Virus record (IMG/VR): IMGVR_UViG_2563366976_000003
Span: 1-10,361 of that record
Reading direction: 5' to 3' (one strand)
DNA length: 10,361 nucleotides
Source: a virus
Taxonomy: Duplodnaviria > Heunggongvirae > Uroviricota > Caudoviricetes
Both the position numbers and the translations under genes were made by a program. The notes below the pieces were generated by a model. The model worked only from the letters and a program-made list of their open reading frames with translations. It made no database searches and was not told the DNA's origin. Shown here in pieces: positions 1,408 through 1,680 of the stretch (position 1 is the first letter of the stretch; each line of letters starts with the position of its first letter).

Positions 1408-1680
1408 ATGGACAATAACACCATTTCTCTACAGGAGTTGCTCGACAGCATTTCCAGGCTTCGGGAAGACGTGAATACCCTTACCGTCGCCTTCTCATAT
1501 CTGGCATTCTCAATTCCAAGGGAACAGATGCAATCAACGCTGGCATCAATCCAGTTTGAATCATGCAATCCCAAATGGTCTCAGGAACAACAAGACTCTT
1601 TCAGGCGGCTTGCTGTATTACTGGATGAAAAATATGCTGGTAAAATTACCATTTCGGCGGACTCTTCAGAGAACCCGTAA
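1408..1680 (+). CDS. hypothetical protein (90 aa), the only convincing plus-strand gene; lies antisense within the lysis cassette
   Basis: ATG at 1408 is preceded by AGGA about 8 nt upstream. The 90-aa ORF has no recognisable motif. Its 3' end overlaps the 3' end of the convergent 114-aa gene by 35 nt. Confidence 0.4.
   Translation: MDNNTISLQELLDSISRLREDVNTLTVAFSYLAFSIPREQMQSTLASIQFESCNPKWSQEQQDSFRRLAVLLDEKYAGKITISADSSENP

Follow-up and report, generated by a model that had tools for sequence, protein, structure and literature searches.

Ybl58, a small gene lying antisense between ydfR and the endolysin gene of a lambdoid prophage, as a probable moron

In lambdoid phages the genes S, ydfR and R are read as one late transcript. 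The stretch of virus DNA considered here (IMG/VR record IMGVR_UViG_2563366976_000003, Caudoviricetes, positions 1 to 10,361; hereafter the window, 10,361 nucleotides in full) is the late-regulatory and lysis region of a lambdoid prophage, which is read on the minus strand. In the window ydfR and the endolysin gene R are both intact, and a plus-strand open reading frame (ORF) of 90 amino acids, Ybl58, is inserted between them. An opposite-strand gene between co-oriented genes of one operon is the geometry of a noncontiguous operon, and it is the geometry of Ybl58. As is described below, Ybl58 is a genuine protein-coding gene under purifying selection. The order on the minus strand is a gene for a DUF968 protein, RusA, the antiterminator Q, a Ser/Thr kinase, a PP2C phosphatase and a truncated DNA methylase, followed by three tRNAs, STnc100-like RNAs, a NanS-p-type sialate esterase, the holin, the YdfR/DUF1327 gene and finally endolysin R (Table 1).

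A preliminary description of this locus had singled out Ybl58 as the only plus-strand ORF with a good ribosome-binding site, and this was borne out by a scan of the plus-strand ORFs of at least 40 amino acids in the window, among which it alone has a core resembling a Shine-Dalgarno (SD) sequence 4-10 nt before the first start codon. The core had been given as AGGA about 8 nt before the ATG, which is close enough to the one that was found, and AAGGA or GAGGA is kept at an unchanged spacing in the divergent homologues L006 and L088. The coordinates likewise agree with the placement of the ORF between a 114-amino-acid gene (ydfR) and the endolysin gene, with its convergent overlap of 35 nt with the former, and with the existence of a minus-strand ORF across it. 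Longer ORFs occur on the non-coding strand of the window (for example 169 amino acids at 965-1474), so the length of Ybl58 alone is not beyond chance; the significance of the ORF comes from its conservation.

The coding survey gathered 91 loci, which comprise 17 distinct Ybl58 alleles, and the plus frame is intact in every one of the 17, including a Citrobacter copy and a metagenomic copy at approximately 60-67% amino-acid identity. The ratio of nonsynonymous to synonymous substitution rates (dN/dS), taken pairwise over nine alleles, is 0.26 for the Ybl58 frame and 0.23 for the minus-strand ORF at 1368-1574. The latter value is low because the third-codon positions of this ORF coincide with those of the plus frame, and the ratio was dropped as indecisive between the strands owing to these shared wobble positions. 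An antisense overlap is thus a trap for selection tests, and dN/dS alone would have misled the test of codon-level selection that had been proposed for this locus. The discriminators used instead were ORF integrity, the quality of the replacements, codon usage and the variability of codon position 1 versus position 2. The variable columns number 25, 15 and 42 at the first, second and third positions of the plus codons (p=0.001), position 2 being the most constrained, as is expected for the plus frame only; in the minus-strand frame, position 2 is more variable than position 1. Replacements have a mean BLOSUM62 score of +0.24 when read in the plus frame, which is conservative, versus -0.75 in the minus frame, which is radical, and the plus frame has the best codon-usage score of the six frames. 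Furthermore, the minus-strand ORF is broken by in-frame stops, whose places differ between L003 and L091, and contains a stop in L006 and L088, its ends shift among relatives, it has no ATG start, and it matches no PHROG or Pfam family. A conserved and selected minus-strand ORF, which had been named as one of the findings that would overturn the preliminary reading of Ybl58, was therefore not encountered.

Frameshifted copies of Ybl58 are present in some genomes (P0061, P0037, P0049 and P0051; locus L124). Their products of 94 amino acids match only the first 60-70% of Ybl58, which suggests gene decay in some prophages.

The profile search that had been proposed for the 90-amino-acid protein placed it in PHROG 2411 (E 1.1e-58, residues 1-90 of a 90-position profile), a family that is also matched by the distant homologues of Ybl58. 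The window protein is an exact database sequence (PHROG 2411; 'Ybl58'; WP_000369850.1) whose entries carry no function: in UniRef it is named 'Ybl58' and is found on at least 1000 contigs, while phage records and the NCBI annotation of Escherichia coli list it as a hypothetical protein. At least 80% of positions 1303-1700 is held by 1,117 of 5,426 complete E. coli genomes, so that Ybl58 is very common, occurring in about a fifth of them. Since the protein is already catalogued as hypothetical and the element is of a well known kind, the finding is largely ordinary. The family is very small: in a set of 1.84 billion representatives it makes up 21 clusters at 50% identity. It is confined to Enterobacterales, with the conserved core ELL..I..LR..VN.L..AFSYLAFS...E...T....L.FES.N.

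The protein has a mass of 10.2 kDa, a pI of 4.5 and a grand average of hydropathicity of -0.43, and it contains no hydrophobic segment (the maximum Kyte-Doolittle mean over 19 residues is 0.75). Of the traits of lysis proteins, neither a transmembrane segment, nor a signal, nor a lipobox was found in it. AlphaFold2 places helices at residues 8-35, 38-51 and 59-76 and a disordered tail at residues 79-90; the mean predicted local distance difference test score (pLDDT) was 73 with close homologues and rose to 83 once distant ones were added, with values below 50 in the tail. Ybl58 is accordingly predicted to be an acidic, soluble three-helix bundle. Searches of Pfam, NCBIfam, PADLOC and the sequences of the PDB with both single sequences and profiles gave no significant match that would indicate a function, PADLOC returned no family at E values up to 1 for either Ybl58 or the Citrobacter homologue, and a structural search with the Ybl58 model found nothing above generic helical bundles. 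The only NCBIfam match, to the anti-silencing family Mip, covered 15 residues at E 0.037 and was put down to chance. A literature search for 'ybl58' returned no paper.

Members of the family are also found in other surroundings. The Citrobacter homologue lies antisense between a late gene of unknown function and a lambda-type holin gene, with an overlap of 14 nt; the 238-amino-acid neighbour in Citrobacter was considered as a relative of YdfR and rejected, as it shows no similarity. The Klebsiella homologue is antisense directly after an Rz gene, and the Atlantibacter homologue is antisense between the tail genes M and L, with an overlap of 7 nt. The Sodalis homologue is chromosomal. A distant member of 92 amino acids (L097, 4001-4279, and also L098; profile E 1.7e-6) is situated between dinI and bssS on an enterobacterial chromosome, where in L097 it follows the dinI terminator and has a promoter-like sequence of its own; inspection by eye revealed no LexA box either in the upstream region of the window or next to dinI in L097. 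Finally, an E. coli paralogue of 89 amino acids (P0080), which is approximately 58% identical to Ybl58, is carried by islands (L099-L102) and is present on at least 1000 contigs; an AIDA-type autotransporter gene precedes it on the same strand by approximately 310 nt, and it lies outside any phage late operon. In prophages the family is always on the opposite strand, and no consistent linkage to, or co-orientation with, lysis genes was found. In L089 only a remnant of ydfR is left, beside an intact Ybl58 gene. This remnant and the homologues outside lysis contexts indicate that Ybl58 is tied neither to YdfR nor to lysis.

Morons are reportedly extra transcription units in phage operons, following the definition of Juhala and Hendrix. 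The Ybl58 ORF is present in only 3 of 116 phage records that match positions 1250-2050, and most of the related phages match this region in two pieces, with a coverage of 60-63%, a segment of approximately 275 bp being absent. This segment consists of the 5' leader, the SD sequence and the first 79 or so codons of Ybl58. The Qin prophage of E. coli K-12 is similarly devoid of Ybl58, its ydfR directly abutting the lysozyme gene. The G+C content of the segment is 43.5%, versus 54.7% for R and 53.2% for the holin gene, with ydfR intermediate at 47.5%. The right junction is the stop codon of ydfR, and the sequence from approximately position 1655 onwards pre-exists in ydfR alleles that lack the ORF (L004); the last eight or so codons of Ybl58 are therefore read from ydfR-antisense DNA that was already there. 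The tail of Ybl58 shows no codon periodicity, and the Citrobacter and L088 proteins stop 5-7 residues sooner (...ITIS and ...ITIREG), without a tail. An identical overlap with ydfR occurs in L001, L002, L003, L087 and L091. The simplest explanation of the overlap is that it came about when the segment was inserted next to the ydfR stop codon, and it seems incidental rather than designed.

The C-termini of YdfR vary among alleles exactly at this junction, with forms of 103, 104, 114, 116 and 183 amino acids. The K-12 Qin orthologue (103 amino acids) is reported to bind RNase E in its catalytic N-terminal half and to co-purify with RNA (PMC13232886); a literature search on DUF1327 found nothing relevant.

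The position between ydfR and R accepts more than one kind of gene. For a census of this slot, viral contigs were fetched by the R-proximal flank alone, and 93 of them had enough downstream sequence. Ybl58 occupies the slot in approximately 20-27 of the 93 contigs, PHROG 2572 in approximately 14, PHROG 1853 in approximately 6-7, PHROG 18136 in approximately 4-6, a 210-amino-acid orphan ORF in approximately 3 and PHROG 10490 in approximately 1, while the slot is empty in approximately 33-45. In addition, phage 2H10 carries PHROG 2572 and phage Perceval carries PHROG 21218 in the slot, both on the plus strand; these two were compared with Ybl58 as possible remote relatives and rejected (hhalign probability below 1%). 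The slot genes, here referred to as cargo, are single small ORFs of 79-210 amino acids, all of which lie on the plus strand and start 95-125 nt beyond the ATG of R. The conserved flank of approximately 55 bp precedes at least seven unrelated small ORFs (loci L105, L106 and L109-L228; the slot follows ydfR or the holin gene), and the cargo types other than Ybl58 have no known function and no Pfam match. The ydfR-R junction thus acts like a cargo hotspot for small genes in antisense, which is the one mildly new point of this analysis. The preliminary description had taken Ybl58 for a moron; its presence or absence in otherwise collinear phages, its low G+C content, the exchangeable cargo, and the antisense and non-phage positions of its family support its assignment as a moron-type accessory gene.

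Table 1. Ybl58, its candidate signals and other features of the window
Feature	Position	Strand	Remarks
Endolysin R (phage lysozyme, 177 aa), downstream late gene	769-1302	-	Pfam Phage_lysozyme E 3.2e-24; annotated 'lysozyme R'
Weak candidate sigma-70 promoter	1318-1346	+	-35 TTTATC 1318-1323, 17-nt spacer, -10 TATGTT 1341-1346; position weight matrix (PWM) score 7.6
Hairpin CAGCCTG-ttgcct-CAGGCTG, 7 bp	1356-1375		Left edge of cargo segment
Minus-strand rival ORF, 68 aa, TTG start	1368-1574	-	Judged a non-coding shadow of the plus frame
Segment absent from ORF-less relatives	1368-1645		Approximate bounds; alignment with phage PhiR49_2 (L004)
SD core GAGGA	1397-1401	+	6 nt 5' of Ybl58 ATG (sequence and scan)
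Ybl58 coding sequence, 90 aa	1408-1680	+	ATG start; PHROG 2411; RefSeq WP_000369850.1 'hypothetical protein'
Convergent ydfR/Ybl58 overlap, 35 nt	1646-1680		ydfR 3' end versus last 11 Ybl58 codons and stop
ydfR-family gene (DUF1327, 114 aa), late-operon neighbour	1646-1990	-	Pfam E 4.5e-42; PHROG 406
Hairpin GCGCCUC-9 nt-GGGGCGC, then UUUU	1723-1749	+	Inside ydfR, 43 nt past Ybl58 stop
Class II holin, phage 21 S family, 71 aa as annotated in relatives	1995-2210	-	Pfam PF04971 E 2.3e-32; upper coordinate 2210 or 2288
STnc100 copies	4437-4646, 4924-5114, 4712-4885	-	
tRNA genes Arg-tct, Arg-tcg, Met	5190-5439	-	

Possible signals for transcription of Ybl58 are found in and next to the R-proximal flank. 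The TTTATC-17-TATGTT candidate is present in all E. coli-type alleles according to the PWM scan. Moreover, GGATATGTT is invariant in 48 cargo-bearing copies that represent seven cargo types, with a spacer that varies, and in the commonest empty allele GGATATGTT is changed to GGACAGGTT. The hairpin that borders the cargo segment on the left (1356-1375) has a folding energy dG of -13.4 on the plus strand and -14.9 on the minus strand (z -2.7 and -3.1, respectively). Every cargo type has a short hairpin right after the flank (also L105, L106, L128, L194, L203, L204, L216, L006 and L088). Outside the window its sequence is different, in most cases GCCAGTG-gtggg-CACTGGC, which is sometimes followed by TTTT on the plus strand and which also precedes the Citrobacter Ybl58 homologue in a different lysis cassette. 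The slot hairpin might be a 5'-untranslated stem on the plus transcript, a structure of the late mRNA or a recombination boundary. Beyond the gene, the hairpin at 1723-1745, a possible plus-strand terminator (dG -13.8, z -2.1), shows a compensatory change in L087 and has stronger equivalents after the cargo of 2H10 and Perceval.

The lambdoid late operon is silent in the lysogen, and after induction it is read by a Q-modified, terminator-resistant polymerase. Because of this, a weak promoter on the opposite strand could fire unhindered in the lysogen, and late transcription would override it once the prophage is induced. On balance, Ybl58 is probably a moron of lambdoid prophages that is expressed in the lysogen from its own weak promoter, binds a partner and does not belong to the lysis machinery. 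While the prophage is repressed, the weak promoter of the R-proximal flank would drive Ybl58; with induction, Q-antiterminated transcription of the late operon would pass through the gene in antisense and shut it off. The protein would be expected to be lysogeny-specific, since late transcription would silence its gene on induction, and it may bind a host or phage partner in the manner of other small prophage accessory and exclusion factors. A lysogen-expressed, protein-binding accessory factor is the reading favoured here, and confidence in any specific role is low.

Several observations weigh against this proposal. A scan for consensus sigma-70 promoters upstream of Ybl58 found none, and the TTTATC-17-TATGTT candidate matches the consensus at 3/6 and 4/6 positions, which is weak. 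The motif is also kept in 14 empty alleles of the BP-4795 type, and the R-proximal flank may instead be conserved for the expression of R on the other strand. The promoter candidate with the best PWM score, TTGCCT-19-TACAAT (1363-1393), is unlikely, as its start falls inside the SD sequence and it decays in L087 and L089. As a cargo-specific terminator, the 1723-1745 hairpin was rejected because most empty ydfR alleles have it too and it is equally frequent in them. Finally, the binding of a partner is a guess from the size and predicted fold of the protein, and none of the fold or sequence searches described above gave a match that would assign a function.

A more far-reaching account would make the ydfR-R junction a dedicated hotspot in which the flank serves as a shared weak promoter, the cargo is lysogeny-specific and Ybl58 is a new anti-phage or host-modulating protein. 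Ybl58 is the commonest cargo, antisense nesting would cause the cargo genes to silence themselves on induction, and such a logic of expression would be expected of exclusion or defence factors that must spare their own phage. The sole PADLOC match among the cargo is that of PDC-S51 to PHROG 10490, which is weak and partial (E 1.3e-5, residues 12-71), and the account as a whole is considered doubtful. If the cargo genes are expressed in the lysogen, new exclusion, defence or host-modulating proteins could be sought within this short slot, which would also lend itself to testing whether genes nested on opposite strands of a lambdoid late operon are expressed in a mutually exclusive manner.

It is unlikely that Ybl58 is instead a gene of the lytic cycle, acting in counter-defence or host takeover and expressed early from its own promoter after infection or induction but not in the lysogen. 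Phage inhibitors of host proteins are often small, acidic and helical, and Ybl58 is carried by a plaque-forming phage, Chlobot, which was isolated from puddle water. However, placement in antisense inside a late operon is typical of accessory loci expressed in the lysogen (PMC7067206), the gene is often found in chromosomal prophages and seldom in the phage collection, where the three records mentioned above carry it, and it has homologues in chromosomal and island contexts outside phages.

The possibility that the functional product is chiefly an RNA, the ORF being secondary or the locus dual, was also weighed. Such an RNA would act in the lysogen as a cis-antisense transcript against the ydfR-R late mRNAs of superinfecting relatives or against leaky transcription. 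The transcript would span the 3' end of ydfR, a sequence of wide conservation in lambdoid phages, and there is a precedent in STnc6030, an antisense RNA within the late genes of BTP1 that excludes superinfecting BTP1 (PMC7067206). Nevertheless, the frame stays open over approximately 40% amino-acid divergence and at loci without ydfR, and the conservative replacements, codon periodicity and kept SD sequence would not be needed for a pure RNA. With no Rfam match in 1300-1760 either, this is judged very unlikely.

The same low probability is given to a role in lysis timing, in which Ybl58 transcription would collide with, or be antisense to, late-operon transcription and would thereby tune endolysin expression. 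The nested antisense position between co-oriented late genes and the overlap with ydfR provide the geometry, a plus transcript ending at the 1723-1745 hairpin would complement approximately 100 nt of ydfR, and reciprocal regulation in 'noncontiguous operons' has been documented in phage 80alpha (PMC11087260). The preliminary description had suggested that such a collision might affect lysis timing in the lysogen. This is not supported, because the late operon is silent there and leaves nothing to collide with; the direction of interference is likely to be the reverse, with the Q-modified polymerase silencing Ybl58. Only weak promoter candidates are available to face the Q-antiterminated transcript. 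Many related phages share this holin, ydfR and R and either have no Ybl58 or carry unrelated cargo, and a gene that is dispensable and exchangeable in its slot is a poor candidate for a timing device. Furthermore, it is the protein sequence of Ybl58 that is under purifying selection, and members of its family occur away from lysis genes. That the real gene is the minus-strand ORF, which has a low dN/dS and the orientation of the late genes, or that neither ORF is functional, is scarcely credible in view of the shared third positions, stops, variable ends, missing ATG, radical replacements and lack of family matches of that ORF, and of a plus frame uninterrupted in 17 alleles, even though a few frameshifted database copies exist.

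The proposal of a lysogen-expressed moron can be set beside several known systems. The bor gene of phage lambda reportedly encodes a lipoprotein with a known phenotype and has a mapped promoter (Barondess and Beckwith). Like bor, Ybl58 is a small extra gene, dispensable to collinear relatives, that lies in or next to the lysis cassette and opposite to late transcription, with its own translation signals and a G+C content below that of its neighbours. Unlike bor, it is cytoplasmic, its promoter and terminator are only candidates, and it is positioned between ydfR and R. STMMW_20121 of the Salmonella prophage ST64B is an uncharacterized gene that RNA sequencing showed to be transcribed independently, from its own promoter and antisense to lytic genes (PMC7067206), whereas the promoter of Ybl58 is a weak candidate. 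In the Staphylococcus aureus phage 80alpha, the antisense unit ith-1/tha-1 shows mutually exclusive expression (PMC11087260). Ybl58 resembles it as a small antisense gene nested in an operon, for which mutually exclusive expression in lysogeny and the lytic cycle would be expected; however, the nested gene of 80alpha is in the lysogeny (cI) operon rather than the late operon, inhibits a neighbouring defence protein and belongs to a different host and family. The hotspots of P2-like phages and P4-like satellites hold multi-gene anti-phage systems of shown activity (PMC9122126). The ydfR-R slot shares with these a fixed position between conserved genes and alternative, unrelated cargo, but its cargo consists of single small ORFs of unassigned function.

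Some further features were observed in the window and in one of the related prophages. The late region of the Citrobacter prophage L006 encodes an ADP-ribosyltransferase resembling pertussis toxin S1 and Scabin, together with a HicB-like antitoxin (4945-5847, minus strand). No stx genes are present in the window. Between the antiterminator Q gene and the tRNA genes lies a pair encoding a eukaryotic-like Ser/Thr protein kinase (279 amino acids) and a PP2C phosphatase (247 amino acids), at 5926-7505 on the minus strand with an overlap of 4 nt. A 108-amino-acid ORF at 5489-5815 (minus strand) matches only positions 134-219 of the 221-position N6/N4 DNA methylase profile and, because of this partial coverage, is regarded as a truncated methylase gene. 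The STnc100 small RNA family is represented downstream of the three tRNA genes by three copies, two of them strong and one weak (165, 136 and 30 bits).

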